From: an uncultured Spirochaetota bacterium
GTDB taxonomy: Bacteria; Spirochaetota; Spirochaetia; Treponematales; UBA12059
Direction of reading: 5' to 3'
Assembly (NCBI GenBank): GCA_937873275.1
Contig: CALMRC010000051.1
Location: forward strand, 1,057 to 65,056
Length of the DNA: 64,000 bases
Part shown: in pieces, positions 20,733 to 48,249 of the stretch
Numbering within the stretch: position 1 is the first letter of the stretch
How the letters are laid out: every line of letters begins with the position of its first letter
Position numbers and translations under genes: made by a program
The notes under the pieces: generated by a model
Databases searched by the model: none
Told to the model about the DNA's origin: nothing
Seen by the model: only the letters and a program-made list of their open reading frames with translations

Positions 20733-20839
20733 ACTGGTCCCCGGTGTCGCGCGGCAGGCTCGCGAATTCGGCCGGCGGCGCTTCGCCCAGGACGGAAGCC
20801 GTGTGCGTCCGTAATGTCCCAAATGTGAAGGAAACCTTC

Positions 20840-21922
20840 ATGAAATCCAAGATTTCCGTCGTCCTCATCGGCATCCTTCTGGTACTGGCCGTGGCCGGCT
20901 GCGCGAAGAAAGAAGCTCCGGCTCCCGCCGCCCCGTCCATGAAGGTCGGCATGGTCACCGACGCCGGCACCATCGACGACAAGTCGTTCAACCAGGGAAC
21001 CTGGGAAGGCGTCCTCCGCGCCGGCACCGAGTTCAAGCTGGACACCAAGTACCTGAAGCCCTCCGGGACCACCGAGGCGGATTACCTCAAGGAAATCGGC
21101 AACCTCTACGATGCGGGCTACAAGTTCATCGTGACCCCGGGCTTCAAGTTCGAGACCACCATCTTCCAGGCCCAGACCAAGTACGCGGACGCCAAGTTCG
21201 TCCTGATCGACGGCAGCCCCCACGCCGGGGACTGGAAGAACGTGGTCGGTCCCAACACCGTGTCCATCTTCTTCGCGGAGCACGAGTCCGGCTTCGTGGC
21301 CGGCGTCGCCGCCGCCCTCCAGATGAAGACCGGGTCCTTCGGCTTCATCGGCGGCATGGAGATTCCCCCGGTCCAGAAGTTCAATTGGGGCTTCCAGCGG
21401 GGCGTAGACTACGCGAACAAGAACCTGGGAACCAAGATCACCATCAAGGCCGAGAACGTGATCTACCAGGGCTCCTTCGACAACGTGGCCGCGGGCCAGC
21501 AGATCGCCGCCTCCATGTACGACAAGGGCGTCACCGTGATCTTCGCGGCCGCCGGCGGCGTGGGCGTGGGCGCCATCAACGAGGCCAAGGCCCGGGCCAC
21601 CGCGGGCAAGACCGCCTGGATCGTGGGCGTGGACGTTGACCAGTACGCCGACGGCATCTACACCGGCGACAAGTCCGTCATCCTGACCAGCGCCATGAAG
21701 CGCATCGACGTGGCCGCCTTCGACATGATCAAGGCCGAGCTGGACAAGACCTTCCCCGGCGGGAAGACCCTCACCTTCGACGCCAAGAACAACGGCGTCG
21801 GCATCCCCGCCAAGAATCCCAACCTCGCCCCCGAAGTCCAGGCCAAGGTCGAGGAGATCTTCAAGCTCATGCAGAACGGAACCATCACGGTTCCCGCCGA
21901 CCAGGGCACCTTCATCAAGTAG
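20840..21922 (+). CDS. BMP-family (PnrA/TmpC-like) nucleoside-binding ABC lipoprotein
   Basis: Start ATG 20840 with lipoprotein signal MKSKISVVLIGILLVLAVAGC. It contains the BMP-family pattern (VTDAGTIDDKSFNQ...). Confidence 0.85.
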   Translation: MKSKISVVLIGILLVLAVAGCAKKEAPAPAAPSMKVGMVTDAGTIDDKSFNQGTWEGVLRAGTEFKLDTKYLKPSGTTEADYLKEIGNLYDAGYKFIVTPGFKFETTIFQAQTKYADAKFVLIDGSPHAGDWKNVVGPNTVSIFFAEHESGFVAGVAAALQMKTGSFGFIGGMEIPPVQKFNWGFQRGVDYANKNLGTKITIKAENVIYQGSFDNVAAGQQIAASMYDKGVTVIFAAAGGVGVGAINEAKARATAGKTAWIVGVDVDQYADGIYTGDKSVILTSAMKRIDVAAFDMIKAELDKTFPGGKTLTFDAKNNGVGIPAKNPNLAPEVQAKVEEIFKLMQNGTITVPADQGTFIK

Positions 21923-21944
21923 GAATCCGCCCCGGCAATCCAGG

Positions 21945-21975
21945 GCCGCCGCCGCGAGGCGGCGGCTTTTTTCTT
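21945..21975 (+). terminator. intra-operon rho-independent terminator/attenuator after the BMP lipoprotein gene
   Basis: GCCGCCGCC-GCGA-GGCGGCGGC followed by TTTTTTCTT. It lies between the binding-protein gene and the ATPase gene. Confidence 0.7.
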
Positions 21976-22084
21976 GTCGAGCCCCCGGGGGGCGGATTAT
22001 ACTGCTGTTCCGAAACCCGCGGCCGTCCGCGGGACGTTCGACGCCAAGGGGGCCCCCCTCCTTGGCCCGCGCCAAGGAGAGGGC

Positions 22085-23611
22085 ATGGAATACATAGTCG
22101 AGATGCTCCACATCACCAAGGACTTCCCCGGAATACGCGCCAACGACGATATCACCGTGCAGCTCCGGAAGGGCGAGATCCACGCCCTCCTGGGGGAGAA
22201 CGGGGCGGGCAAGTCCACCCTGATGAGCATCCTCTTCGGCCTGTATCGGCCGGACGCCGGGGTCATCAAGGTCCGGGGCAACGAGGTGGCCATCCACAAC
22301 CCCAACGTGGCCAACGCCCTGGGCATCGGCATGGTCCACCAGCACTTCAAGCTGGTTCACAACTTCACGGTCACGGAGAACATCATCCTGGGGATGGAAC
22401 CCACCGTAGGCCCCATGCTTCAGACCCGGGACGCCGCCAAGCGGATCAAGGCCCTGTCCGAGCAGTACGGCCTGAACGTGGATCCGGACGCCAAGATCGA
22501 GGACATCTCCGTGGGGATGCAGCAGCGGGTGGAGATCATCAAGATGCTCTACCGCAACGCGGAAGTGCTCATCTTCGACGAGCCCACCGCCGTGCTGACG
22601 CCCCAGGAAATCACGGACCTCATGCAGATCATTCGGAACCTGATCAAGGAGGGAAAATCCATCCTCCTCATCACCCACAAGCTCAAGGAGATCAAGGCCA
22701 TCGCGGACCGCTGCACCGTCATTCGGCGCGGCAAGGTCGTCGACACCGTGGACGTCGCGGACGTGGCGGAGTCCCGGATGGCGGAGATGATGGTGGGTCG
22801 CACGGTTAACTTCACCGTGGACAAGCGGGACCAGGAGCGGGGCGAGGCGGTCCTGTCGATCCGGAACCTGAACGTACTGTCCAGCCGCAAGACCCAGGCC
22901 TTGAAGAATTTCTCCCTCGACGTGCACCGGGGGGAGATCCTAGGTCTGGCGGGGGTGGACGGCAACGGCCAGACCGAGCTGGTGGAGGCCTTGACCGGTC
23001 TGCGCAAGGTGGAATCCGGCTCCATCCTCTTCAAGGGCCGGGACATCACCCACGACGACATCCATTCCCGGGTGATGGCCGGCATGGCCCACATCCCCGA
23101 GGACCGGCAGAAGCGGGGCCTGGTCCTGGACTACACCATGGAGGACAACTTCATCCTGGAGATCTACGGCCGCGAGCCCTATTCGCATAAGGGGTTCCTG
23201 AATCGCAAGGCCATCCGGGACCACGCGGAAAAGCTGATCCGGGACTTCGACGTCCGATCCGGCCAGGGCGCCCTCTCCATGGGCCGGACCCTCTCCGGGG
23301 GAAACCAGCAGAAGGCCATCGTGGGCCGGGAGATCGACCACGACCCCGAGCTGCTCCTGGCGGTACAGCCCACCCGGGGATTGGACGTGGGATCCATCGA
23401 GTACATCCACAAACGGCTAGTGGAGCAGCGGAACAACGGCAAGGCGGTACTCCTGGTCTCCCTGGAGCTGGACGAGATCATGGATCTCTCCGACCGGATC
23501 GCGGTGATCAGCCACGGGGAGCTTACGGGCGTCAAGCTGCCGAAGGAGACCAACGAGAGCGAGATCGGCCTCATGATGGCCGGGATCGCGGGCGCGGGAG
23601 GGACGGAATGA
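22085..23611 (+). CDS. ABC transporter ATP-binding protein with two NBDs (nucleoside/simple-sugar type)
   Basis: Start ATG 22085 behind AAGGAGAGG. Two Walker A sites are present (GENGAGKST and GVDGNGQTE), along with LSGG signatures. Confidence 0.9.
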   Translation: MEYIVEMLHITKDFPGIRANDDITVQLRKGEIHALLGENGAGKSTLMSILFGLYRPDAGVIKVRGNEVAIHNPNVANALGIGMVHQHFKLVHNFTVTENIILGMEPTVGPMLQTRDAAKRIKALSEQYGLNVDPDAKIEDISVGMQQRVEIIKMLYRNAEVLIFDEPTAVLTPQEITDLMQIIRNLIKEGKSILLITHKLKEIKAIADRCTVIRRGKVVDTVDVADVAESRMAEMMVGRTVNFTVDKRDQERGEAVLSIRNLNVLSSRKTQALKNFSLDVHRGEILGLAGVDGNGQTELVEALTGLRKVESGSILFKGRDITHDDIHSRVMAGMAHIPEDRQKRGLVLDYTMEDNFILEIYGREPYSHKGFLNRKAIRDHAEKLIRDFDVRSGQGALSMGRTLSGGNQQKAIVGREIDHDPELLLAVQPTRGLDVGSIEYIHKRLVEQRNNGKAVLLVSLELDEIMDLSDRIAVISHGELTGVKLPKETNESEIGLMMAGIAGAGGTE

Positions 23612-24660
23612 GCCGCTTCAAGAATCTTTTCACCGCCCTGGCCGCGGTGGTCCTGGGACTCCTGGCCGGCGCGGTCTTCATGGCCCTCTCCGGATCCAAC
23701 CCCCTCGCGGGTTTCTACTACCTCTTCCGCGGAGGGCTGATGAACATGGAGCGCATCGGCAACACCCTTGCCTCCGCAACGACCCTCGTGTTCACCGGCC
23801 TGGCCGTGGCCTTCTCCTTCAAGACCGGCTTGTTCAACATCGGAGCCTCCGGCCAGATGCTCATGGGGGGACTCACGGCCACCGCCATCGGGCTGTCCGT
23901 CCAGATGCCCCGGATGATCCTCCTGCCCCTGATCGTCCTGGCCGCCGCGGCGGCCGGAGCCCTCTGGGCCGCGATTCCGGGCTTCCTCAAGGCCAAGTTC
24001 AACGTCCACGAGGTGGTGGCGACCATCATGATGAACTGGATCGCCTACTGGACCGTGTACTACACGATCCCGGCCTATTTCAAAGGCACCTTCCTGGAGA
24101 CCGAATCCCGGCGCATCCCCGCCCTGGCGTCCTTCCGGGTCGAATGGCTCACGAACATCTTCCGGGGTTCCTACATCAACATGGGCGTCTTCCTGGCCCT
24201 GACCGCGGTGATCGTCATCGCGATCATCCTGGAAAAGACGACCCTGGGCTTCGAGCTCAAGGCCGTGGGCTTCAACCGGTATGCCGCGGAATACGCGGGC
24301 ATCCACGTCCCCAAGAACATCGTACTGTCCATGTCCATCTCGGGAATCCTCGCGGGCCTGGCGGGGGCCACCTACTATTTGGGATACGCGGTGAACATGC
24401 AGATCGGCGTCGTACCCTCGGCGGGCATCGACGGCATCGCCGTGGCGCTCCTCGGGGCCAACAGCCCCTGGGGCGTACTCGCCTCCTCCCTGTTCTTCGG
24501 GATCCTCCACTCGGGGAAGGGTTTCATGAACGCCATGACCAAGGTTCCGCCGGAGATCGGGGACACCATCATCGCCATCATCATCTACTTCGCCGCGACG
24601 GGCGTGCTATTCACCCGCCTCTGGGAACGCATCACGCGGAAGTGGAACAAGGAGGCCTAG
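23608..24660 (+). CDS. ABC transporter permease (BMP-type system)
   Basis: 350 aa, multi-TM. It has a 4-nt overlap with the ATPase gene. Confidence 0.85.
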   Translation: MSRFKNLFTALAAVVLGLLAGAVFMALSGSNPLAGFYYLFRGGLMNMERIGNTLASATTLVFTGLAVAFSFKTGLFNIGASGQMLMGGLTATAIGLSVQMPRMILLPLIVLAAAAAGALWAAIPGFLKAKFNVHEVVATIMMNWIAYWTVYYTIPAYFKGTFLETESRRIPALASFRVEWLTNIFRGSYINMGVFLALTAVIVIAIILEKTTLGFELKAVGFNRYAAEYAGIHVPKNIVLSMSISGILAGLAGATYYLGYAVNMQIGVVPSAGIDGIAVALLGANSPWGVLASSLFFGILHSGKGFMNAMTKVPPEIGDTIIAIIIYFAATGVLFTRLWERITRKWNKEA

Positions 24661-24661
24661 G

Positions 24662-25615
24662 ATGCATACCCTCGCCTTGATCTTCCCCTACGCCGTCGCC
24701 TTCACCGTACCCCTGCTGGCCGCATCCTTGGGGGGCCTGTTCAGCGAGCGCTCCGGCGTGGTGAACATCGGCCTCGAGGGGCTGATGGTATCGGGCTCCT
24801 TCACCTGCGCCGTCGTTGCCAGCCGCATGGAGACGGTACTGGGTCCCGGAAATCCCGGCGCGCTCTGGATGGGCCTGGGAGCGGCCGTGGTCGTGGGGGC
24901 CCTCTTCTCCCTGCTCCACGCCTTCGCCAGCATCAGCCTCAAGGCCAACCAGGTCATCAGCGGCACGGCGATCAACATGATCGCCGGATCCCTGACGGTC
25001 TTCCTGGCCCGGACCATGACCGGGTCCGGGAACGTCCGGATCGTCCTGGGCTTCATCCCCTCGGACATCCCGGTCCTCTCGGGCATACCGATCCTGGGTC
25101 CCCTGTTCTTCACGAAGACGTACGCCACCACCTGGCTGATGGCCGCGGTCCTGGCCGTCGCCTGGTTCGTCATCTACAAGACCCCCTTCGGCCTGCGCCT
25201 CCGGGCTTGCGGGGAACACCCCCAGACCGCCGACGCGGCGGGTATCAACGTCTACCGCATGCGCTACATCGCGGTGGTGCTGTCCGGCGCCCTGGCGGGC
25301 TTGGCGGGCGGGATCATCCTGGTGACCTATTCCGGGGAGTTCAACGGAAACGTCGCGGGCCTGGGCTTCCTGGCCCTGGCGGCCCTGATCTTCGGGCAGT
25401 GGAAACCCCTGGGCATCCTGGGGGCCACGGCCTTCTTCGGGTTCGCGGCCACGATCGCCAACGTCTCCCAGGTGATTCCCCAGTTCTCCCGGATACCGGG
25501 TCTCCTCTTGAAGGCCTTCCCCTACGTGGTCACCCTGATCGCCCTGGTCCTCTTCTCCAAGAGCAGCCAGGCGCCCCGGGCCTCGGGGGAGCCCTTTGAC
25601 CAGGGCAAACGATGA
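24662..25615 (+). CDS. ABC transporter permease (BMP-type system)
   Basis: 317 aa, multi-TM. It directly follows the first permease. Confidence 0.85.
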   Translation: MHTLALIFPYAVAFTVPLLAASLGGLFSERSGVVNIGLEGLMVSGSFTCAVVASRMETVLGPGNPGALWMGLGAAVVVGALFSLLHAFASISLKANQVISGTAINMIAGSLTVFLARTMTGSGNVRIVLGFIPSDIPVLSGIPILGPLFFTKTYATTWLMAAVLAVAWFVIYKTPFGLRLRACGEHPQTADAAGINVYRMRYIAVVLSGALAGLAGGIILVTYSGEFNGNVAGLGFLALAALIFGQWKPLGILGATAFFGFAATIANVSQVIPQFSRIPGLLLKAFPYVVTLIALVLFSKSSQAPRASGEPFDQGKR

Positions 25616-25628
25616 GTTTTCCGGAATA

Positions 25629-25728
25629 GCGCCGGGCCGCGGGCCCGGCGGCAACGAAGCCCTTCGGGCTTCGTCGAACCTCACGATTATTCCGGCAGCT
25701 CCGATACGATCGCGACGCCGTTGGACGC
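25629..25728. repeat. solo copy of the hairpin-hairpin-relic repeat unit
   Basis: GCGCCGGGCCGCGGGCCCGGCGGC (9-bp stem), then ACGAAGCCC-TTC-GGGCTTCGT hairpin, spacer and relic. The same module occurs at 32.0-32.3 kb in the same orientation. Confidence 0.75.
25687..25728 (-). pseudogene. relic of a deoC2-type 3' end (ASNGVAIVSELPE-stop) on the far side of the BMC locus
   Basis: Minus-strand reading GCG TCC AAC GGC GTC GCG ATC GTA TCG GAG CTG CCG GAA TAA, preceded by an in-frame stop. 35/42 nt are identical to 32284-32325 by hand alignment, and 5 of the 6 coding differences are synonymous. Confidence 0.7.
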
Positions 25729-25799
25729 TCATCTCCGGCGCGCGAAAAAATCGGCCCCCGAACACCGGGGGCCGCTTCGTATTCGGAGGATCGGAACCC

Positions 25800-26582
25800 T
25801 CAGTAGCCGCTTCCCAGGGACTGGCCGCTCACCAGGGTGACGCCCTGGCTGGTGCCCAGGCGGTTCGCGCCGGCGTCCAGCATGGCCAGGGCGTCGTCGA
25901 AGCTGCGGATCCCGCCGGCGGCCTTTACTCCCACGGAGGGTCCCACGGTCCGGCGCATCAGCGCGACGTCCGCGACCGTGGCGCCGGACTTGGAGAATCC
26001 CGTCGAGGTCTTCACGAAATCCGCGCCCACGTCCTTCGCGACCTGGCAGGCCAGGACCTTCTCGGCGTCCGTGAGGAGGCAGGCCTCGATGATGACCTTG
26101 AGGACGATGCCGACGCGGCAGGCCCGGCGGACCGCCAGCATGTCCTCCCGGACGGCCTTGAGGTCACCGGCCTTCAAAGCCCCGATGTTCATGACCATGT
26201 CGACCTCGGACGCCCCGTTCGAGACGGCGGTCCGGGCCTCGAAGGCCTTCGAACGGCTGTCCATGGCCCCCAGGGGGAAGCCCACGACCGTGCAGACCTT
26301 GACGCCCGTTCCGCCCAGGCGCCGGGCGCAGCGCTCCACCCAGGTCGAGTTCACGCAGACGGAGGCGAAGCGGTGCTTGGCCGCCTCGTCGCACAGGACG
26401 TCGATCTGGTCCTCCGTGGCCTCGGGCTTTAGGAGGGTGTGGTCGATGAAGGGCGCCAGCTCGGCCGGTTCCATCCGGGGCCGCGCGGGCCCCTCGTCGT
26501 TCGGAACCTCGACCGCCCGGGTCCCCATCCTCGCCAGGACTTCCTGCACGATCCTCTCGATTACCTTTTCCTCGTCCGTCAT
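25800..26582 (-). CDS. deoC: deoxyribose-phosphate aldolase with N-terminal encapsulation-peptide-like extension (DeoC1)
   Basis: Start ATG 26580-26582, with an ATGA overlap with the rpiB stop. The first ~45 aa ([20 protein letters not shown] plus a P/G-rich linker) precede the DERA core [11 protein letters not shown]...VCVNS...KTSTGF...VKAAGGIR. Confidence 0.85.
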
Positions 26583-27070
26583 CCTTCGAAGCCTCCACGC
26601 TCCAGGGCCATGATCTTGTTTATCCTGACGATGTGGCGGCCCCCGGCGAACCGGGTCTCCAGCCACACCTTCACCATCTCGGTCAGGCGGTCCGGCGTAT
26701 GCAAGGGGCCGCCCAGGGTCAGGACGTTCGCGTTGTTGTGCTCCCGGCTGTTCACCACGGTCCGGAGGTCGTAGCACATCGCCGCGCGGATGCCCCGAAC
26801 CTTGTTCGCGGCCATGCAGGAACCGATGCCCGCCCCGTCCAGGACGATCCCCCGCTCGCAGGCCCCGCTCTTCACCTTCCGGCACACCGCCAGGGCGATG
26901 TCGGGATAGTCCACCTTCTCGGTCCCGAAGGTCCCGACGTCGGTCACCCGATACCCCAGGACCTCGAGATAGCGGACCAGGAGGGTCTTCTGCTCGACCG
27001 CCCCGTGGTCCGCGCCGATCGCCACGTTCCGCACCACGTCCGCGGGGGCGGACCCTTCCTCGGCGCTCAT
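26579..27070 (-). CDS. rpiB: ribose-5-phosphate isomerase B / sugar-phosphate isomerase (RpiB/LacAB family)
   Basis: Start ATG 27068-27070, with an ATGA overlap with the BMC-P stop. Core is VAIGADHGA...[10 protein letters not shown]...GGRH. Confidence 0.85.
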
Positions 27071-27348
27071 TCGTCCCCTCCCATGTCGATCCGGTCCACG
27101 ATCCCGCACACCGCCGTCCGCACGGTCACCGCCCCCTCGTCCTCCACGACGGTCCGGGCGGATCCGCCCTCGTCCACGACCAGCACGAGGTCCCCGATCC
27201 CGGCCTGGACCCCGTCCACGGCCAGGAGGGTCTTGCCCCGGGGACTCCCGTCGGGATCCACGGGACGGACCGCCAGGATCTTCTTTCCCGTGTAGCGGGG
27301 GTCCTTTTCCGTGGAGACGACGCTCGCCACGACCTTGGCCAGGATCAC
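27067..27348 (-). CDS. BMC-P (EutN/CcmL-family) shell vertex protein, paralog 4
   Basis: GTG start at 27346-27348, with a GTGA overlap with the paralog 3 stop. The 93-aa product reads (M)[14 protein letters not shown]...[16 protein letters not shown]...[10 protein letters not shown], an EutN-like pattern. Confidence 0.75.
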
Positions 27349-27623
27349 GGGGCGCCTCCCCGGTCCACCGCGTCCACCACGCCCAGGATCGCGGCGTCCG
27401 CCGGGTTGAACCACCCGTTCGGGTTCGCCTGGGCGGCCTCCTTGCCGGACTCGAAGATCACCAGGTCCCCCTCGCCCGCCCGGGCGGTGTCGAAGGCCAC
27501 CAGGGGAGGCCCCGCGGAGGCGCCGGTCTCGTCGACGGGCTGGACCAGGAGGAGCTTGAGCCCCTCGAAGCATTCCATCTTGCGGGTGCTGACCACCCGG
27601 CCGATAACCTTTCCGAGCTTCAT
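27345..27623 (-). CDS. BMC-P (EutN/CcmL-family) shell vertex protein, paralog 3
   Basis: ATG 27621-27623 behind GGAAGG. The 92-aa product reads MKLGKVIGRVVSTRK...LLLVQPVD...AILGVVDAVD. Confidence 0.8.
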   Translation of the reverse strand: MKLGKVIGRVVSTRKMECFEGLKLLLVQPVDETGASAGPPLVAFDTARAGEGDLVIFESGKEAAQANPNGWFNPADAAILGVVDAVDRGGAP

Positions 27624-27634
27624 CGCGGGCCTTC

Positions 27635-29074
27635 CTAGACGATCCGGAAATAGTCGACCAGGGTGCACCGCCGCTCCCGGGTGAAGGACGTGGGCCGGGT
27701 GATCCCCTCGCCCGTGGGGCTCGCGATCGTGAAGGACGCGTGGCCCGCGCCCCCCTGGCCCAGCCCCGCGTAGCAGGGTCCGTTCTTGACGAAGAGGGAG
27801 CAGTCCATGGCCCGGGCCATGTGCGAGAGGCGGGCCACGTCGTGGGAGTGCATGATCGCGGTGTGCCGGTACCCGTGCTCCGCCAGGACCGCGAACTCGA
27901 TGGCCTCGTCGGCGTTCCGCATCCGGACGAAGGGGATCACCGGCATGAGCTGTTCCGTCCAGACCAGGGGGTGTCCGCTCGTCGTCTCCATTAGGAGGAT
28001 CCGGGCGCTCTCGGGCACCTCGATCCCGGCCGCCTTGGCGATGAAGGCCGGGCTCTTGCCCACGAAGGCCCGGTTCGGGGAGCCCGGCCGGCCGGGCCCG
28101 CCCGGCTCGGCGATGATTAGCTTGGTGACCGCGTCGATCTGGGAGCCCTTGAGCTCGTAGGCCCCGTTCCGCAGGAGCTCCTCCTTGAGGCGGTCCGCGA
28201 TGGAGGCGACCGCCAGGATCTCCTTCTCGCAGATGCACACCACGTTGTGGTCGAAGCCGGCCCCGTCCACGATGTCCTTGCCGGCCTTGGCCAGGTCGGC
28301 GGTCTCGTCGACGACGCAGGGAGGGTTCCCGGGGCCCGCGCAGATGGCCTTCTTGCCGCTGGCCATGGCCGCGCGCACGACCCCCGGACCCCCGGTGACC
28401 ACGAGGAGGGCAATCCCGGGGTGCCGCATGAGCTCTCCGGCGGTCTCCAGGGTCGGCTCGGCCACGGCGCACAGGAGGTTTCCGGGCCCCCCGGCCCGGA
28501 CGACCGCCCCGCCGAGCATCTCGATGAGCAGGCGGGAGACGCCCTTGGCGCCGGGGTGCACGTTGAACACGACGGAGTTCCCCGCGGCCACCATCCCGAT
28601 GGCGTTGCTCGCGATCGAGGATATGGGGTTCGTCACCGGGGTGATCGCTCCGATCACCCCGTAGGGGGCCAGCTCCGTGAGGGTGAGACCGTGCTCGTCC
28701 GTGACCACCCGGGACTGGAGATCCTCGACCCCCGGGGTCCGGAGGGCGGCCAGCTCGTTCTTTATCGTCTTGTCCCGGACGTTGCCCAGGCCCGTCTCCG
28801 CGACGGCGGCCTGGCTCAGGGCCTCGTTGGCCTCCAGGACGGTCCGGCGGATCGCTTCGATCACGGCCCGCCGGGTGTCCAGGGGCAGCCGGACGAGCTC
28901 CCGCTGGGCCGCCTGGGCCGCCTGGACGGCGGAATCCATGTCCGGGAAGATACCCGGACCCCGGGCCGTCGCCGGGCCCCCGCCCTTCGCACCCGAGGAC
29001 AGGAGGGCGGCGATCTCCGGGGATCGCAGGATCTCCTCGACCACCCGACGAATATCCTCCGCGCCGTACGCCAT
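27635..29074 (-). CDS. CoA-acylating aldehyde dehydrogenase (PduP/EutE-like) with N-terminal encapsulation-peptide-like helix
   Basis: 479 aa with the ALDH fold and a catalytic Cys context (HNVVCICEKE). The C-terminus is typical of the family (RRCTLVDYFRIV). The N-terminus is MAYGAEDIRRVVEEILRS followed by a Gly/Pro linker. Confidence 0.85.
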   Translation of the reverse strand: MAYGAEDIRRVVEEILRSPEIAALLSSGAKGGGPATARGPGIFPDMDSAVQAAQAAQRELVRLPLDTRRAVIEAIRRTVLEANEALSQAAVAETGLGNVRDKTIKNELAALRTPGVEDLQSRVVTDEHGLTLTELAPYGVIGAITPVTNPISSIASNAIGMVAAGNSVVFNVHPGAKGVSRLLIEMLGGAVVRAGGPGNLLCAVAEPTLETAGELMRHPGIALLVVTGGPGVVRAAMASGKKAICAGPGNPPCVVDETADLAKAGKDIVDGAGFDHNVVCICEKEILAVASIADRLKEELLRNGAYELKGSQIDAVTKLIIAEPGGPGRPGSPNRAFVGKSPAFIAKAAGIEVPESARILLMETTSGHPLVWTEQLMPVIPFVRMRNADEAIEFAVLAEHGYRHTAIMHSHDVARLSHMARAMDCSLFVKNGPCYAGLGQGGAGHASFTIASPTGEGITRPTSFTRERRCTLVDYFRIV

Positions 29075-29377
29075 CTATAGCCCCCGTTCCGACTCGTTCC
29101 AGAGCGTGGTTCCGCCGGAGTCCACCGAGTCCACGATCCCCACCGCCAGGGTGTCCATGGGAGCGTTCTCGGTCCGGTAGGTCCAGCGGCAGGAACTGCC
29201 CTGGGTCAGCATCACCAGCTGGCCCCGCTCCGCCCCCACCATGTCCAAGGCCACCAGGTAGTCCCCCCGCCCGGAGCCTTCGGGGCCGCAGTCCTCCACC
29301 AGGAGGTACCGCGCGCCCTCAAGTCCGTCGGATCGCCGGGAGGCGACCACGGTTCCCCGGACCCTCGCCAAGGTCAT
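29075..29377 (-). CDS. BMC-P (EutN/CcmL-family) shell vertex protein, paralog 2
   Basis: 100 aa, MTLARVRGTVVASRR...LVALDMVGAERGQLVML...AVGIVDSVD. The stop directly abuts the AldDH ATG. Confidence 0.8.
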   Translation of the reverse strand: MTLARVRGTVVASRRSDGLEGARYLLVEDCGPEGSGRGDYLVALDMVGAERGQLVMLTQGSSCRWTYRTENAPMDTLAVGIVDSVDSGGTTLWNESERGL

Positions 29378-29676
29378 TCGGACCGGGCCTTCTCGTAGGT
29401 GTACGATCCGTCCTTCTCGATCGCGTCCACCACGGCGATCACCGTCGCGTCCGTGGGGCGGCCCTTGGTCGCCTCCGTGAGGCGGGCGCTGGAGCCGGTG
29501 ACGTAGAATACGACCTCCCCGGCGTTGGCCCCGACGGAATCCATGGCGACCACGAAGTCGCCCTTGCCCGCGAGGCTTACCGGATCGATCTTCTCGAGGA
29601 GGAGCAGCCGGAGCCCCTCCATGGAGGGGCTCTTGTGGGTGGAGACGACGGTCCCCCGGACCCGGGCGATCAGCAT
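29374..29676 (-). CDS. BMC-P (EutN/CcmL-family) shell vertex protein, paralog 1
   Basis: 100 aa, MLIARVRGTVVSTHK...VVAMDSVGANAGEVVFYV...VIAVVDAIE. ATGA overlap with paralog 2. Confidence 0.85.
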   Translation of the reverse strand: MLIARVRGTVVSTHKSPSMEGLRLLLLEKIDPVSLAGKGDFVVAMDSVGANAGEVVFYVTGSSARLTEATKGRPTDATVIAVVDAIEKDGSYTYEKARSE

Positions 29677-29686
29677 GGGGACGACC

Positions 29687-29995
29687 CTATTTCCGAGGAG
29701 GCGCCGGCTTCCTGCCCAGGGGCAGGGCCGCCTCCACGGACTCGTGGGGCCGGGGAATCACGTGGGTCGAGATGACCTCCCCGACCTTCTCCGCGGACCG
29801 GGCCCCGGCGTCGACGGCCGCCCGGCAGGCGGCGACGTCCCCGCGCACGATGGCGGTCGCGTACCCGCCTCCGATCTTCTCGTAGCCGATCAGGTCGACC
29901 TTCGCCGCCTTGACCATCGCGTCCGCGGCCTCCACCATCGCCGCGAAACCCCGCGTCTCGATCATGCCGAGCGCGTCGTTCGTTGTATCCGCCAT
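29687..29995 (-). CDS. BMC-H hexameric shell protein (PduA/EutM-like)
   Basis: 102 aa, [57 protein letters not shown]...HVIPRPH. This is a canonical single BMC domain. Confidence 0.9.
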
Positions 29996-30032
29996 ATCCG
30001 CTCCTTAATAAGGGCGTCCCCGCCGGGGGCGC

Positions 30033-30674
30033 CTAGATCCTCTGGGTTCCGGCCCCGATCGTCCGGCCGGTCAGGCCCTCCAGGCGGGCCTCCACGGTCT
30101 TCCGGGCCTCGATCACCTCGGCCTCGTCCCCGGCTATGTACACGCGCCCGAAGGCCCCGAAGCCGAGCACCTCCACGATGTTCACCCGGGCGGTCTTCTC
30201 GGCCTCGTTGGCCGCGTAGTACGCGTAACCCGCGGGCTCCACCTCCAGGACGTACAGGGTGTCCCCCCGGAGGACCATGTTCCCGTGGCGGACCTTGTTG
30301 ATCAGCTGGGCGTGGTGGTCCGAGACGTTCTTGATGAGCTGGCTCGTGAGGACCCGGGGCTTGAGCCGATCCTCCTCCTTGAGGCCGAGCTCCCGCAGGA
30401 CGGCCTCCCCGGCCGTTCGGGCGTCGCCCTGGCGGTCGGAATGGACCTCCAGGAGGCCGTAGGCCCGCTCCACGATCTGGAGCCCCGGGGTCACGTTGGT
30501 CGCCTTGAGGGCGATGTCCGTAAGGCGGTTGATCTCGATGCCGGGAGCGATTTCGATGATGCAGCAGGCCTGGAACCCGACCGGGTAGTAGCCCTTGCTC
30601 ACCGTGGCGATGAAGGAGGCGTTCTGGAGCTGGAGGGAGTCCAGGAACACGTAGGTCCGAAGGTCGATGTTCAT
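30033..30674 (-). CDS. BMC-T tandem-domain shell protein (subclass not resolved)
   Basis: 213 aa with two BMC-like halves (DIALKATNVTPGLQIVERAYGLLEV and NEAEKTARVNIVEVLGFGAFGRVYIAGDEAEV). The N-terminus LRTYVFLDSLQLQ is reminiscent of trimer-forming BMC-T proteins. Confidence 0.7.
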   Translation of the reverse strand: MNIDLRTYVFLDSLQLQNASFIATVSKGYYPVGFQACCIIEIAPGIEINRLTDIALKATNVTPGLQIVERAYGLLEVHSDRQGDARTAGEAVLRELGLKEEDRLKPRVLTSQLIKNVSDHHAQLINKVRHGNMVLRGDTLYVLEVEPAGYAYYAANEAEKTARVNIVEVLGFGAFGRVYIAGDEAEVIEARKTVEARLEGLTGRTIGAGTQRI

Positions 30675-30677
30675 GGA

Positions 30678-30974
30678 TCAGTCCCCCTTCCGGCCCAGGG
30701 GCAGGGCCTCGTCCACGGAGGCGTGGGGCCGGGGGATCACGTGGGTCGACACGACCTCTCCGACCTTCTCCGCGGACCGGACTCCCGCGTCCACGGCGGC
30801 CCGGCAGGCCGCGACGTCCCCGCGGACGACGACCGTGACGTAGCCGCCGCCGAGCTTCTCGTATCCCACCAGGTCGACCTTCGCGGCCTTGACCATCGTG
30901 TCGGCGGCCTCCACCATGGCCGCGAATCCTTTCGTCTCGATCATGCCGAGAGCGTCGTTCGTCGATCCAGACAT
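30678..30974 (-). CDS. BMC-H hexameric shell protein (PduA/EutM-like), first gene of operon
   Basis: 98 aa, [57 protein letters not shown]...HVIPRPH. GGAGGG RBS. Confidence 0.9.
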
Positions 30975-31065
30975 ACACCCTCCTGGTGCGCCGCGGCGGC
31001 CCGGGGCGTCCGCTCCGCCCTCCCGGGAACCCGGCCGACTGGATCCCTCACCGGGATCGCCCTGA

Positions 31066-31094
31066 AGTATAGAGGATGGAATGTTTCAGGTCAA
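31066..31094 (-). promoter_or_regulatory. sigma70-like promoter TTGACC-N17-TATACT for the BMC operon
   Basis: Minus-strand reading is TTGACC TGAAACATTCCATCCTC TATACT. It lies ~90 nt upstream of the first BMC-H ATG. Confidence 0.55.
31077..31088. promoter_or_regulatory. candidate DeoR operator half-palindrome TGGAATGTTTCA (inside BMC promoter spacer)
   Basis: It is a near copy, in inverse sense, of TGGAACATTTCA at 31122-31133. The motif is TGrAACATTyCA. Confidence 0.4.
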
Positions 31095-31121
31095 GCAATC
31101 GGCCGGAAAATATGGTATAGT

Positions 31122-31133
31122 TGGAACATTTCA
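31122..31133. promoter_or_regulatory. candidate DeoR operator TGGAACATTTCA (adjacent to deoR -10)
   Basis: This is the second copy of the 12-mer, 45 bp from the first. It is flanked by the direct repeats ATGGTATA (31112-31119 and 31133-31140). Confidence 0.4.
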
Positions 31134-31142
31134 TGGTATACT
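31134..31142 (+). promoter_or_regulatory. extended -10 (TGgTATACT) candidate promoter for deoR
   Basis: CATGGTATACT. No good -35 was found, so it is classed as extended -10. Confidence 0.35.
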
Positions 31143-31231
31143 TTTCTCATCGGGGCTCGAGGCCGATTCCTCCGGATACCGGGCCGGACCCCGGACATTT
31201 CGAGCGGGCCGAACGCGGGTGGAGACGGGGC

Positions 31232-32008
31232 ATGACCAAAAGCGAACGATGGAACGCGATCATGAGGCGCCTGGGATTCGAGACGGCGGCAAGCATCCTG
31301 GAGCTGTCCCGGGACCTCGACGTGTCCCCCATGACCGTGCGCAGGGACCTGGCCGCCCTGGCCCGGGAGGGCAAGGTCCGGGTCCTGTACGGCAGCGCCA
31401 TGCTCCATCCGGACCTGGCCCGCCGGGAGAGCGAGACCTACTACTCCCTCAACGCCGCGGGAGCCGAGCACGCGGAGGAGAAGCGCAGGATCGGGAAGGC
31501 GGCCGCGGCCCTCGCCGAGCCGGGGGACGGCCTCATCGTCGACTGCGGGTCCACGACGGAGTACGTGGCCCGGTACCTCTCCGAGGAGGCGGAGTACACC
31601 GTCCTGTGCTACTCCCTGAACGTCGTGTCCGAGCTCGTCCGGAGGAGGAACTGCCGAACGCTCTTCTCGGGGGGGGAGTTCCACGAGAACACCCTGATGT
31701 TCGAAAGCCCCGAGGGCCTCGAGGCCATCCGGCATTTCCGGGCCAGCAAGGCCTTCCTCTCCGCCTCCGGCGTGGACGCCAAATTCGGGGTGACCTGCAG
31801 CAACGCCTACGAGCGGGAGACCAAGAAGGCCGTGATCCAGTCCTCCCTGCGCAAGATCCTGGTGGTGGACTCCTCGAAGTTCGGGGCCGTCCGCCCGGCC
31901 TACTTCGCGGACCTGGCGGATTTCGATGAGATCGTCACGGATCCGGGAATACCCGACGAGTACCGGAGGATCGCCGAGGAGCGGGGTCTCCGCCTGACCA
32001 TCGTCTAG
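31232..32008 (+). CDS. DeoR-family transcriptional regulator
   Basis: Start ATG 31232. N-terminal HTH is ERWNAIMRRLGFETAASILELSRDLDVSPMTVRRDLAAL, with a C-terminal DeoR sugar-phosphate sensor domain. It is divergent from the BMC operon. Confidence 0.85.
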   Translation: MTKSERWNAIMRRLGFETAASILELSRDLDVSPMTVRRDLAALAREGKVRVLYGSAMLHPDLARRESETYYSLNAAGAEHAEEKRRIGKAAAALAEPGDGLIVDCGSTTEYVARYLSEEAEYTVLCYSLNVVSELVRRRNCRTLFSGGEFHENTLMFESPEGLEAIRHFRASKAFLSASGVDAKFGVTCSNAYERETKKAVIQSSLRKILVVDSSKFGAVRPAYFADLADFDEIVTDPGIPDEYRRIAEERGLRLTIV

Positions 32009-32078
32009 GTTGCGACGCCCGCGCGCTTATCGCCGGGCGGCAATGAAGCGCGGAGCGCTTCCCCGAAATCCACGAATC

Positions 32079-32114
32079 CTATTCGGGGAGTTCGGAGACT
32101 ATGGCGACTGCGCC
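32079..32114 (-). pseudogene. relic of deoC2 3' end (GAVAIVSELPE-stop), tandem copy
   Basis: Reverse complement GGC GCA GTC GCC ATA GTC TCC GAA CTC CCC GAA TAG. The peptide is the same but the codons differ. Confidence 0.65.
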
Positions 32115-32194
32115 GGGCCGCGGGCCCGGCGGCAACGAAGCGCGGAGCGCTTCGTCGAGTTTTCTGAAGCCGGCGCGGACCGGATACCGGCATA

Positions 32195-32230
32195 CTATTC
32201 GGGGAGTTCCGATACTATGGCGACTGCGCC
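32195..32230 (-). pseudogene. relic of deoC2 3' end (GAVAIVSELPE-stop), tandem copy
   Basis: Reverse complement GGC GCA GTC GCC ATA GTA TCG GAA CTC CCC GAA TAG. It differs from the 32079 copy only at two synonymous sites. Confidence 0.65.
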
Positions 32231-32283
32231 GGGCCGCGGGCCCGGCGGCGCCGAAGCTAAGGCTTCGGCGATTTTCCGTAGAA

Positions 32284-32880
32284 CTACTCCGGCAACTCCG
32301 ATACAATTGCGACGCCGCTGGAGGCTCCTATCCGGTCCGCGCCGGCTTCCAGGAGCTGGATGGCGTCGTGGTAGGTACGGATGCCGCCGGAGGCCTTGAT
32401 GCGGAGATCCCGATCCCCGATCGTACCCCGAAGGAGCCGGATGTCCTCCACGCTCGCGCCCCCGGTCCCGAAGCCCGTGCTCGTCTGGACGTATCGGGCG
32501 CCGGCCCGGATCGCCGCCTCGCAGGCGCGGGCCTTCTCGGACTCGCCCAGGTAGCAGGTCTCCAGGATCACCTTCACCGCCGCCGGTCCGGATGCCTGGA
32601 CGACCCCCCGGATGTCCTCCTCCACCGCCTTCCAGTCCCCGGACTTGGCGGCGCCGAGGTTGATCACCATGTCGACCTCCCCCGCGCCCGACTGGACGGC
32701 GAGGCGGGCTTCCTCCGCCTTGGATTCCGGATCGCTCGCCCCCAGGGGAAATCCGATCACGGAACAGACGGTGATTCCGCTGCCCGCGAGCTTGCGGAGG
32801 CAGAAGCGGATCCAGTAGGGGTTCACGCAGACGCCGAAGAACCCGAACGCGCGGGCCTCGGCGCAATGCTCCTCCAGCAT
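32284..32880 (-). CDS. deoC: deoxyribose-phosphate aldolase paralog without targeting extension (DeoC2); true 5' end unresolved
   Basis: 198 aa from the first ATG, with DERA core VCVNP...VQTSTGF...IKASGGIR. The conserved N-terminal strand (AELAKAIDHSLLKAFGTER) is encoded in-frame upstream of that ATG, with no ATG/GTG/TTG available. Confidence 0.7.
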   Translation of the reverse strand: MLEEHCAEARAFGFFGVCVNPYWIRFCLRKLAGSGITVCSVIGFPLGASDPESKAEEARLAVQSGAGEVDMVINLGAAKSGDWKAVEEDIRGVVQASGPAAVKVILETCYLGESEKARACEAAIRAGARYVQTSTGFGTGGASVEDIRLLRGTIGDRDLRIKASGGIRTYHDAIQLLEAGADRIGASSGVAIVSELPE

Positions 32881-32970
32881 CCGTTCCGTGCCGAAGGCCT
32901 TGAGGAGGCTGTGATCGATCGCCTTGGCCAGTTCGGCCCGGGTCCAATGCTTCGTAGAAAGCTCCTTTCG

Positions 32971-46579: not shown

Positions 46580-46640
46580 CAGGGCACGACCCTTGAATCG
46601 AGCGCGGCCGGCCCGAGGGTCCGGACCGCCGGGAGGAACC

Positions 46641-47951
46641 ATGAGCGACTGGAAGGAAGAATACCGCAAGCGCCTCGTCCCGATCGACGAGGCCATCCGG
46701 GTCATCAAGAGCGGGGACGACGTGGTCGTCGCACAGTGCGCCTCGGAGCCCCAGGGAACCATGTCCCGGCTCCACACCCTGGCGGACCGGGTGACGGACG
46801 TCCGGGTCTTCTCGGTCCTCACCCTGAAGCCCTACGATTTCTACGCAAAACCCGAGATGAAGGGCCACTTCGAGCTGGCCAGCTGGTTCCACGCCCCGGG
46901 TTCCCGGGAGGCCCTGAAGCGGGGCACCGGGACCGTCACCTTCGTCCCGAACATGCTTCACCGGGCGGCCACGGACCGGATCCACGCCCGGAGGCCCGAC
47001 GTCTTCATCGGGACTTGCACGCCACCGGACCGGAACGGCTTCGTCTCCCTGTCCCTCGGGATCACCTACGAGAAGGACATCCTGGAGGCGGCCTCCGCGG
47101 TCATCCTGGAGGTGAACCCCCGCCTCCCCCGGACCCTGGGGGACACCCACCTTCGGGTCACCGAGGCGACGTACTTCGTGGAGCACGACCAGGAGGTGCC
47201 CGCCCTTCCCGCGCCCCAGCCCACCGATACGGACCTGGCCATCGGAGGATACATCGCGGACCTCGTGGAAGACGGGTCCACCATCCAGCTGGGCATCGGG
47301 GGCATCCCGAACGCCGCGGCCCTGGCCCTCCGGGGCAAGAAGGACCTCGGGGTGCACACGGAGATGATGGTGGACTCCATGATGGAGCTCTACGAGATGG
47401 GGGTGATCACGAACAAGCGGAAGTCCCTGTTCAAGGACAAGTTCGTGTGCACCTTCGCCATGGGGTCCCGGGCCCTCTACGACTGGCTGGACGACAACGT
47501 GGCCGTGGAGTTCCGCCGAGGACGCTGGGTCAACGATCCCGCCGTCGTGGCCCAGAATTCCCGGATGGTCTCCATCAACACCTGCCTCATGGTGGATTTC
47601 ACGGGCCAGGTTGCCAGCGAGTCCCTGGGCACCCAGCAGTACTCGGGGACCGGGGGCCAGTCCGATACCGCCCAGGGCGCGGTTGCGGGATTCGACGGCC
47701 TGGGGAAGTCCATCATCGCCTGCTACGCCACCGCCAAGGGCGGCGCCGTCAGCACCATCGTCCCGACCCTTCCGGAGGGCACCGCCGTGACCCTGCACCG
47801 CTCCTTCGTGGACCACATCGTGACCGAGCACGGGATCGCCCGGCTCCGGGGCCGCACGGTCCGGGAGCGAACCCTCGAGCTGATCGCCGTGGCGGACCCG
47901 CGCTTCCGGGAGGAGCTCACGGCGCAGGCGAGGAAACTGGGGTATCTATAG
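46641..47951 (+). CDS. acetyl-CoA hydrolase/transferase-family protein (4-hydroxybutyrate CoA-transferase-like)
   Basis: Start ATG 46641 behind GGGAGGA. Begins MSDWKEEYRKRLVPIDEAIRVIKSGD and contains the LGIGGIPNA motif. Confidence 0.85.
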   Translation: MSDWKEEYRKRLVPIDEAIRVIKSGDDVVVAQCASEPQGTMSRLHTLADRVTDVRVFSVLTLKPYDFYAKPEMKGHFELASWFHAPGSREALKRGTGTVTFVPNMLHRAATDRIHARRPDVFIGTCTPPDRNGFVSLSLGITYEKDILEAASAVILEVNPRLPRTLGDTHLRVTEATYFVEHDQEVPALPAPQPTDTDLAIGGYIADLVEDGSTIQLGIGGIPNAAALALRGKKDLGVHTEMMVDSMMELYEMGVITNKRKSLFKDKFVCTFAMGSRALYDWLDDNVAVEFRRGRWVNDPAVVAQNSRMVSINTCLMVDFTGQVASESLGTQQYSGTGGQSDTAQGAVAGFDGLGKSIIACYATAKGGAVSTIVPTLPEGTAVTLHRSFVDHIVTEHGIARLRGRTVRERTLELIAVADPRFREELTAQARKLGYL

Positions 47952-47999: not shown

Positions 48000-48199
48000 C
48001 ACCACGGAGGACACGGAGATCACGGAGTATTTACAAAATATTGGATCAGGGAGGCTATGCAAGCTTGAAGAGACTATTGAGGCGGTAGAAAGGACATTCG
48101 AACAAAAAATCCATCCTTTTTTCCGCTTCATCTTGCGCCTCCATTCGGATCGATGGTTCAAAGACCGGCTTCCTCCGTGTGCTCCGTGATCTTCGTGGT
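48000..48199. mobile_element. ~200-bp AT-rich MITE-like element with triple NNCACGGAG inverted ends (copy 2)
   Basis: Left end is CACCACGGAG GACACGGAG ATCACGGAG and right end is CTCCGTGTG CTCCGTGAT CTTCGTGGTT. The interior is unrelated in sequence to copy 1. Confidence 0.55.
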
Positions 48200-48237
48200 T
48201 GATTCCGGAAAAACCTAGAAGCCGTCCTCGACTACGG

Positions 48238-48243
48238 TATACT
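48238..48243 (+). promoter_or_regulatory. -10 box TATACT 6 nt before tatD ATG (leaderless geometry)
   Basis: GGTATACTGTCTCCATG with no SD. Confidence 0.45.
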
Positions 48244-48249
48244 GTCTCC

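Follow-up and report, generated by a model that had tools for sequence, protein, structure and literature searches.

The segment at 25800-32008 is very probably a BMC locus of the SPU2 type, in which residues 1-44 of the deoxyribose-5-phosphate aldolase (DERA) DeoC1 and residues 1-40 of the aldehyde dehydrogenase (AldDH) act as encapsulation peptides (EPs). Positions refer to the window, which is the whole 64-kb stretch of DNA analysed. The shell operon is complete. It contains two BMC-H genes, one CcmP-like BMC-T gene, four BMC-P genes, and an RpiB-like gene, with a divergent DeoR gene beside it. All ten operon genes have Pfam matches. The features are listed below.

31232-32008, plus strand: DeoR-family regulator, divergent from the BMC operon (Pfam HTH_DeoR, DeoRC)
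30678-30974, minus strand: BMC-H shell protein, with which the operon begins (Pfam PF00936)
30033-30674, minus strand: CcmP-like double-stacking BMC-T (BMC-Tdp), 213 aa (closest solved structures; PF27545 in orthologues)
29687-29995, minus strand: BMC-H shell protein (Pfam PF00936)
29374-29676 and 29075-29377, minus strand: BMC-P (EutN/CcmL) pair (Pfam PF03319, both)
27635-29074, minus strand: CoA-acylating AldDH (EutE/PduP-like), 479 aa (Pfam PF00171)
28997-29062, minus strand: probable EP helices of AldDH, residues 5-16 and 19-26 (AlphaFold2, hydrophobic moment, homologues)
28955-28996, minus strand: predicted flexible linker of AldDH, residues 27-40 (low pLDDT, variable length)
27345-27623 and 27067-27348, minus strand: BMC-P (EutN/CcmL) pair (Pfam PF03319, both)
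26579-27070, minus strand: RpiB-like protein without an EP (Pfam PF02502)
25800-26582, minus strand: DeoC1, the probably EP-tagged DERA, 260 aa (Pfam PF01791)
26523-26576, minus strand: probable EP helix of DeoC1, residues 3-20 (AlphaFold2, hydrophobic moment, conservation in homologues)
26451-26522, minus strand: predicted flexible linker of DeoC1, residues 21-44 (low pLDDT, variability)
32284-32955, minus strand: DeoC2, an untagged DERA paralogue (Pfam; ACG at 32953-32955, Gln157 encoded by CAG at 32485-32487)

The solved structures nearest to the BMC-T protein are 5V76, CcmP (5LSR/4HT5), and CsoS1D, with E-values of 1e-72 to 1e-48, and the CsoS1D_N domain (PF27545) is present in its orthologues. 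Overlaps of 4 nt (ATGA/GTGA) occur at three junctions (P3/P4, P4/rpiB, and rpiB/deoC1); the RpiB gene thus overlaps a neighbour at both its start and its stop. A 24-nt GC-rich palindrome was considered as a conserved island boundary, and was rejected because it is missing from two loci that carry the same island (L166 and L082).

The N-terminal extensions of DeoC1 and AldDH

DeoC1 starts at the ATG at 26582, which shares 4 nt (ATGA) with the rpiB stop. AldDH starts at the ATG at 29074, and its N-terminus reads MAYGAEDIRRVVEEILRSPEIAALLSSGAKGGGPATARGPG followed by IFPD. The earlier note had omitted the stretch AALLSS from this N-terminus. It had also claimed that the two proteins share an N-terminal amphipathic helix, and proposed structure prediction over residues 1-45. 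Both AlphaFold2 and the hydrophobic moment bear this out, giving a helix and then a disordered linker in each protein. In DeoC1, residues 3-20 are predicted as helical (pLDDT about 80), residues 21-29 have pLDDT <50, and the barrel begins at residue 39. The AldDH model is of moderate quality (mean pLDDT 70); it places helices at residues 5-16 and 19-26, pLDDT <50 at residues 25-38, and the core from about residue 41. The helical hydrophobic moments of the tag 11-mers are 0.81 in DeoC1 and 0.97 in AldDH, each the highest value of the whole protein, and the moment of the AldDH 16-mer was reached in only 18 of 10000 shuffles.

The two tags are predicted amphipathic helices of 12-18 residues, with a hydrophobic face formed by residues 8, 11, 12, 15, and 16. 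The pattern [IV]xR[IV]VxE[IV]L, which was set post hoc, has exactly two matches in the six-frame translation of the 64 kb, at residues 8-16 of DeoC1 and at residues 8-16 of AldDH; 200 residue shuffles gave none. The idea that one enzyme recently gained its tag as a copy of the other was rejected, since the tag regions in register are identical at only 33 of 66 nt.

The helices are conserved among homologues, and the linkers are variable. Across 120 homologue clusters, the DeoC1 helix is kept as MDQNQLIEKIVAEVVARL, followed by a linker of about 18-55 aa with variable composition. The 120 clusters of AldDH homologues, which are named 'aldehyde dehydrogenase EutE' or 'propionaldehyde dehydrogenase' in the sources, conserve MAxxADEIRxIVEQVLKSPDIAALL, with linkers differing in length and sequence. 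C280 and C282 of the AldDH stretch VCICEKE are invariant. Alignment of DeoC1 with E. coli DeoC pairs D128, K191, K220, and Y260 with D102, K167, K201, and Y259, respectively. With the equivalents of D102, K167, and K201 all present, DeoC1 is predicted to be a competent class I DERA.

A set of 80 DERA loci, taken from species-representative genomes, served to compare the extension with the presence of shell genes; the extension was called by regex, and shell genes were sought within 10 kb. Shell genes were found beside 32/37 extended DERAs vs 1/41 unextended DERAs (Fisher p = 1.6e-15). The sole unextended DERA with shell genes (L016) does have the helix, which the regex missed; L070 was also extended by eye. 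No shell gene lies within 10 kb of five to six of the extended DERAs (L022, L049, L050, L055, L070, and L077), which counts against the EP reading. Solved non-BMC DERAs can be aligned with DeoC1 only from about residue 39; together with the 80 loci, this is in keeping with an extension that homologues lack when they are not part of a BMC locus. The expectation that the DeoC extension would track with shell genes therefore holds in this sample. Both tagged genes also lie amid the seven shell genes of the operon (two for BMC-H, one for BMC-T, and four for BMC-P).

These extensions show all the sequence-level hallmarks of BMC encapsulation peptides. The helix-plus-linker arrangement had been read as EP architecture in the earlier note, which agrees with these hallmarks, the shell operon context, and the tracking with shell genes. 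In the Pdu and Eut systems, the EPs at the N-termini of PduP, PduD, EutC, and EutE consist of a helix of ~18 residues, with an i/i+3/i+4/i+7/i+8 hydrophobic face, and then a flexible linker. They sit on aldehyde-producing and aldehyde-consuming enzymes, as the tags do here. The cargo differs, with a DERA in place of the diol or ethanolamine lyases.

By analogy with the Pdu and Eut EPs, the helices might bind the luminal face of the shell, each other, or both, so that DERA and AldDH would be co-packaged during shell closure. Inside the shell, DERA would cleave deoxyribose-5-phosphate to yield glyceraldehyde-3-phosphate plus acetaldehyde, and AldDH would turn the acetaldehyde trapped there into acetyl-CoA. 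Neither end of the RpiB-like protein has a helical extension, which upholds its earlier description as untagged. Its Asp78 aligns with the catalytic Cys of the solved RpiB 3HE8 (GIVICGTGLG). Being untagged, with Asp for Cys, and translationally coupled to DeoC1, it is probably a DERA-bound passenger or scaffold.

The helices might instead be mainly enzyme-enzyme assembly elements, which nucleate a core of DERA, AldDH, and the RpiB-like protein, with encapsulation following core condensation. The register and motif common to both helices would suit hetero-association, and RpiB is untagged here and tagged in many other SPU loci. DERA and RPI have been reported to form a 1:1 complex, in a study that left undecided if the targets of EPs are the core enzymes, the shell, or the two together (Dwyer 2024, PMC11585597). 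However, core assembly is compatible with the EP reading, as published definitions of EPs cover core aggregation. As a separate explanation, it is considered unlikely.

Relation to known BMC systems

The SPU2 loci of Spirochaetes and Bacteroidetes have been catalogued (Sutter 2021, Nat Commun, PMC8217296). Their only enzymes are AldDh, pfam01791, and pfam02502 proteins; every AldDh carries an N-terminal EP, and only about a third of the pfam02502 proteins have an EP. Their shells contain one to two BMC-H, a triplet of BMC-P with one further copy, and a CcmP-like BMC-Tdp (Sutter 2021, PMC8217296). The present locus has the same three enzyme types and no others (Pfam), two BMC-H, and a CcmP-like BMC-Tdp (5V76, CcmP, about 1e-70). 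Its four PF03319 genes agree, by count, with a BMC-P triplet and an additional copy. The probable N-terminal EP on AldDh, the probable EP on DERA, the RPI without an EP (as in two-thirds of SPU2 loci), and the spirochaete host are also shared.

Two differences from SPU2 were found. First, the 64-kb window contains neither a BMC-Ts nor PduS. The tblastn search revealed no additional BMC-domain gene in the window, although one might be present elsewhere in the genome; PTAC, alcohol dehydrogenase, nucleoside phosphorylase, and phosphopentomutase were also looked for in the window and not found. Since BMC-Ts, PduS, PTAC, and alcohol dehydrogenase are lacking from it, cofactor recycling is left without explanation, which counts against the EP-tagged SPU2 reading. 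Second, the locus is flanked by an untagged DERA paralogue whose Schiff-base position is occupied by Gln.

An amphipathic N-terminal extension, which non-BMC DERA lacks, is present in all SPU DERAs, and all SPU RPIs have the catalytic Cys66 changed to Asp (Dwyer 2024, PMC11585597), which corresponds to Asp78 here. The EPs of AldDH are N-terminal in the SPU types except SPU6 (Dwyer 2024, PMC11585597). The proposal that DERA is the signature enzyme of the compartment agrees with the SPU model published in the same study. The SPU6 system of Chloroflexi (Dwyer, Sutter and Kerfeld 2024, Commun Biol, PMC11585597) also has an amphipathic N-terminal DERA helix, conserved DERA active-site residues, and a partner RPI with Cys66 changed to Asp. 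However, the SPU6 DERA extension has about 70 aa, with a helix of 25-30 residues and two beta strands, whereas that of DeoC1 has 44 aa, with a helix of about 18 residues and a plain disordered linker. In the Chloroflexi loci examined, the SPU6 extension also contains a Cys-rich stretch and AGAERLSSTLG. The AldDH EP is C-terminal in SPU6 and N-terminal here; the RPI EP is N-terminal in SPU6 and absent here.

The tags on DeoC1 and AldDH had thus been correctly observed, and the supported parts of that observation were already published (Sutter 2021, Dwyer 2024). The tag finding itself matters very little, as the BMC field had catalogued the SPU2 loci of Spirochaetes in 2021 and analysed the tags of SPU DERA and AldDH, with DERA as signature enzyme, in 2024.

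The untagged paralogue DeoC2

The second DERA had been described as lacking the extension and as spanning 32284-32880. That span is a truncated ORF, whose ATG leaves out the conserved AIDHSLLK strand situated upstream; the gene is 32284-32955. DeoC2 still has no extension at the corrected length, because its homologues start MKHWTRAELAKAIDH. Its start codon position is occupied by ACG, which is ATG in relatives, and the ACG is repeated in an independent assembly. The sequence '...VAIVSELPE*' is the native end across the 223-aa family, so that truncation of the C-terminus by a repeat insertion was rejected.

The catalytic column was set by alignment to E. coli DeoC from NC_000913. DeoC2 has Gln157 (YVQTSTG) at the column of E. 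coli K167 (DFIKTSTG), the known Schiff-base lysine, and retains the equivalents of D102 and K201. Gln is also found at this column in its 10 closest homologues, and no compensating lysine common to the Q lineages was found. In an NJ tree of the DeoC2 family, the K-to-Q change occurs at about six separate positions; the substitutions in the column are Q, plus one M. The scan of metagenome contigs gave few close relatives of DeoC2 (best 70% identity), with L086, L092, L096, and L098 being informative. All six untagged DERA copies adjoining a BMC operon (three lineages) are Q variants. The K variants with known context are all without the island, including the closest K sister at an empty site. 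In this sample, 3 of 4 Q lineages are beside a BMC, and none of at least five K lineages. The dN/dS among Q variants, including both with ACG, is 0.12-0.25, which indicates purifying selection and leaves the idea of a pseudogene in decay unsupported for DeoC2.

One luminal and one cytosolic DERA had been predicted for the same cell, with DeoC1 inside the shell and DeoC2 active in parallel. The intact ORF, the retained D102 and K201 equivalents, and the purifying selection favour this prediction, as does the valS-deoC-bmp-ABC neighbourhood of the family in BMC-free relatives, which is typical of a working nucleoside-catabolic DERA. However, the exchange of the Schiff-base lysine for Gln and the ACG at the start position make it unlikely that DeoC2 is an active, well-expressed DERA; the lack of a compensating lysine shared by the Q lineages also speaks against it, as does the finding that all the untagged copies adjoining BMC operons are Q variants. 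Two active DERAs in one cell are therefore highly improbable.

With DeoC1 as the encapsulated DERA, DeoC2 would be the resident DERA of the valS-deoC-nucleoside-transporter neighbourhood, whose Schiff-base lysine may have been lost in the island-bearing lineages. We tentatively propose that in Spirochaetia with an SPU2 island the lysine of the DeoC2 family was lost repeatedly, with purifying selection kept and sometimes an ACG start. The acquired DERA BMC might select for a shut-off of cytosolic acetaldehyde, or for a deoxyribose-5-phosphate binder that does not cleave. This side observation could matter modestly, as it suggests that DERA is not run in two compartments. A cytosolic DERA silenced or repurposed after encapsulation would give a testable statement on why toxic-aldehyde pathways compartmentalise.

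Start of DeoC1

An annotation artefact, with translation from Met37 and the upstream frame as an untranslated rpiB overlap, would fit the 224-aa annotation of P0005 and P0006 from MEPAEL and the NCBI start of a 98%-identical homologue at Met37, but is scarcely credible, as the frame upstream of Met37 is open with its ATG overlapping the rpiB stop, the upstream amino acids are conserved in >100 clusters despite saturated synonymous sites, and automated start calls are documented to miss the DERA extension (Dwyer 2024). The helix codons of DeoC1 show a dN of 0.19-0.35 with saturated dS, which argues for translation of the extension in this frame. The 98%-identical NCBI protein, starting from Met37, bears out a caution already in the literature, that such tags are clipped by automated start calls.

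N-terminal tags of DeoC1 and AldDH

The tagged DERA (DeoC1) and the acylating aldehyde dehydrogenase (AldDH) are encoded in a tightly packed operon on the minus strand, from 30974 to 25800, and its genes were confirmed by Pfam. Overlaps of 4 nt occur at several junctions, including P4/rpiB and rpiB/deoC1. The solved structures nearest to the BMC-T are the H. ochraceum BMC-T, CcmP, and CsoS1D. The source names of the homologues place the organism among Spirochaetia/Rectinemataceae MAGs.

The BMC operon and its neighbours
30678-30974 (-), BMC-H
30033-30674 (-), BMC-T, tandem-domain, 213 aa
29687-29995 (-), second BMC-H
29374-29676 and 29075-29377 (-), two BMC-P
27635-29074 (-), AldDH (aldehyde dehydrogenase)
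27345-27623 and 27067-27348 (-), two further BMC-P
26579-27070 (-), RpiB-family protein
25800-26582 (-), DeoC1
31232-32008, DeoR regulator, divergent from the operon; a second DeoC (DeoC2) lies beyond it
20744-25615, Bmp/PnrA-type ABC transporter, converging on the operon from the other side

The earlier note had proposed that DeoC1 and AldDH share an amphipathic-helix tag. Its N-terminal sequences are correct, except that "AALLSS" was omitted from AldDH. DeoC1 starts at ATG 26582, overlapping the rpiB stop; position 26448, where the range given in the note begins, is the final base of codon 45, where the extension ends. The proposed motif is present in both tags (residues 8-16 of DeoC1 and AldDH); these were the only two matches in the six-frame translation of the whole window, and none occurred in 200 shuffles. 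The motif was chosen after the data were seen, so this rarity shows only that it is not a common string.

In AlphaFold2 models built with homologue alignments, both extensions are helical, and each tag segment has the top helical hydrophobic moment within its own protein. The DeoC1 model has a helix at residues 3-20 (pLDDT ~80), disorder at 21-29, and a TIM barrel from residue 39. The AldDH model, moderate overall, has helices at 5-16 and 19-26, disorder at 25-38, and a core from ~41.

The DeoC1 helix is kept in the best 120 homologue clusters (consensus MDQNQLIEKIVAEVVARL). Behind it come a linker of ~18-55 residues rich in Ala/Gly/Ser/Pro and the segment L-P-x-D-L-x-x-[YF]-IDHTLLKP. The AldDH homologues conserve MAxxADEIRxIVEQVLKSPDIAALL, a variable linker, and G[IV]FPD. 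The helix codons of DeoC1 have dN of 0.19-0.35 despite saturated dS, so the helix frame is translated. The annotated start of a 98%-identical NCBI protein (P0005) is Met37, which clips the extension; such start-site clipping is a warning of Dwyer et al. 2024 (PMC11585597). The two tags have just 33/66 nucleotides in common, in register; their likeness thus reflects protein-level constraint, and recent duplication is ruled out as its origin.

Shell association and published SPU systems

DERA relatives were scanned in one genome per species (80 loci, 10-kb flanks), and each locus was scored for an upstream in-frame helix and, by tblastn, for shell genes. With extension classes set by regex, shell genes lay within 10 kb of 32/37 extended DERAs vs 1/41 unextended ones (Fisher p = 1.6e-15). 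The single exception, L016, actually has a helix (MDKKELIDRISKEVIAKL), and none of the 80 loci has a clearly unextended DERA inside a shell locus. The extension therefore tracks with shell genes. Extended DERAs with no shell genes within 10 kb were L022 (a 2.8-kb contig), L049, L050, L055, L070 (extended on inspection by eye), and L077; Sutter et al. 2021 (PMC8217296) mention pfam01791 genes with EPs that are located apart from the main locus. In these loci, N-terminal EP helices occur in AldDH of the non-Chloroflexi types, with none in the Chloroflexi type.

Two side observations concern other loci. In DERA extensions of the Chloroflexi type, a conserved stretch with four cysteines (e.g. CKVNCTDKVCVRTCFD) separates the amphipathic helix from an AGAERLSSTLG segment (L041, L058, L059, L063, L064, L067, L069, L074; also L011, L040, L055, L070, L072). 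This stretch may bind a metal or a cluster; cysteines in the extension go unmentioned in the main text of Dwyer 2024 (PMC11585597). In a Spirochaetota MAG (L001, 9689-10780), a BMC-H gene lies immediately upstream of an EP-tagged DERA; no further shell gene or BMC enzyme gene is present within 10 kb on each side, so the pair looks like a two-gene satellite.

SPU2 comprises 53 loci, mostly of Bacteroidetes and Spirochaetes, with AldDh, pfam01791, and pfam02502 as the only enzymes (Sutter 2021, PMC8217296). Its shell has 1-2 BMC-H, a BMC-P triplet plus an extra copy, a CcmP-like BMC-Tdp, and BMC-Ts; every AldDh has an EP at its N-terminus, and EPs are found on around half of the pfam01791 and one third of the pfam02502 proteins (PMC8217296). 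Of the points tested, the window differs only in BMC-Ts, of which none was found in the 64 kb. With corrected start sites, Dwyer, Sutter and Kerfeld 2024 (PMC11585597) found that every SPU DERA carries the amphipathic extension, that every non-BMC DERA lacks it, and that AldDH EPs are N-terminal except in SPU6. They also reported DERA as the universal signature enzyme, in agreement with the earlier note, a 1:1 DERA-RPI complex, and a Cys66-to-Asp change in all SPU RPIs. The window RpiB shares this change: Asp78 (26837-26839, -) occupies the catalytic-Cys column, with Ala at the next Thr position (vs GIVICGTGLG in 3HE8). Unlike many SPU RPIs (e.g. L005, L011, L016, L017, L041), it has no encapsulation peptide, as had been noted, and this also holds for its nearest relatives (L002-L004, L006-L009, L012). 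Given these matches, the observed tags are confirmed and their interpretation is mostly right, yet both are already known from publications, and the locus is at most one more SPU2 example.

As expected from the Pdu/Eut paradigm and the SPU literature, the helices would bind shell proteins and/or each other, so that DERA and AldDH are co-packaged. DERA would free acetaldehyde inside the shell, and AldDH would convert it to acetyl-CoA; the untagged RpiB-like protein, probably non-isomerising, might enter riding on DERA. No PTAC, alcohol dehydrogenase, or PduS was found in the window, so turning over CoA and NAD+ would require their exchange across the shell, for which Dwyer et al. 2024 (PMC11585597) suggested the BMC-Tdp. 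An acetyl-CoA hydrolase/transferase family gene (46593-47951, +) and a TatD-type DNase (48199-49008, +), 15-17 kb from the BMC locus, may bear on acetyl-CoA disposal and DNA scavenging.

The untagged paralogue DeoC2

A modestly interesting by-product is DeoC2. The ORF quoted before (32284-32880, -) starts at an internal Met; the gene spans 32284-32955 (-), and the family is 223 aa long, beginning MKHWTRAELAKAIDH. Where homologues start with ATG, DeoC2 has ACG (32953-32955, -), six bases past an AAGGAG ribosome-binding site (32962-32967). Gene callers consequently give a truncated 198-aa protein (P0125, P0126). An independent assembly, L081, has ACG at the same position; its ORF is intact and its spacer differs. 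The ACG might represent either weak non-canonical initiation or shared silencing.

In the alignment to E. coli DeoC, Gln157 (CAG, 32485-32487, -) occupies the column of K167, known as the Schiff-base lysine of DERA. The D102 and K201 equivalents are retained; the family has no C-terminal Tyr. The column holds Gln in the 10 homologues closest to DeoC2 and Lys in 102/120 family members, and no compensating lysine is common to the Q lineages. The dN/dS of 0.12-0.25 indicates that the gene is not decaying and the protein is still constrained. The predicted pairing of one luminal with one active cytosolic DERA is contradicted by the DeoC2 sequence.

Genomic context of DeoC2 and the island

The resident deoC2 and the nucleoside-type Bmp/ABC transporter flank the deoR+BMC operon (25616-32283), which looks like an inserted island of 6.7 kb. 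The closest K-type sister, L171, has the exact neighbourhood of the window with the site empty: deoC2(K) and the ABC permease are convergent neighbours, and after the permease come Bmp, HATPase, STAS, and a 716-aa SpoIIE protein. The BMC-free relatives L084, L085, and L172 have the order valS - HD-like gene - deoC2(K) - bmp - ABC transporter. L169 lacks deoC2 at the syntenic site, where the island has taken its place.

The NJ tree of the spirochaete DERA family places Q (or M) at roughly six distinct points. Every untagged DERA copy found beside an SPU operon has Gln, namely the window, its island-bearing relatives L081, L082, and L166, and two more Q lineages (L003, L098). Another Q lineage, L096, has no SPU operon within 10 kb; L086 and P0209 had no usable context and fall outside this comparison. 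At other spirochaete SPU2 loci, no untagged DERA lies in the vicinity. The Q forms beside islands and the absence at other SPU2 loci tentatively suggest, from few independent lineages and local context, that cells with the compartment either lose the cytosolic DERA or keep it without its nucleophile. This would be the reverse of dividing the labour between two compartments.

Between the window and L166, dS is 0.06 for DeoC1 and 0.32 for the adjacent DeoC2; the island is therefore much more alike than its flank, which hints at a recent exchange of the island between these genomes. The last ~10 codons of deoC2 (...VAIVSELPE*) have three extra copies on both sides of the island (25687-25746, 32079-32138, and 32195-32254, -). 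Each is followed by the palindrome GCGCCGGGCCGCGGGCCCGGCGGC (25629, 32110, 32226); the 64 kb hold no further copy of this palindrome (three vs 0.01 expected). One such copy follows deoC2 in L081, L082, and L166, and none is present in the empty-site relatives. These copies may have arisen as an att-like duplication, when an element integrated at the 3' end of deoC2, or may represent a small mobile repeat.
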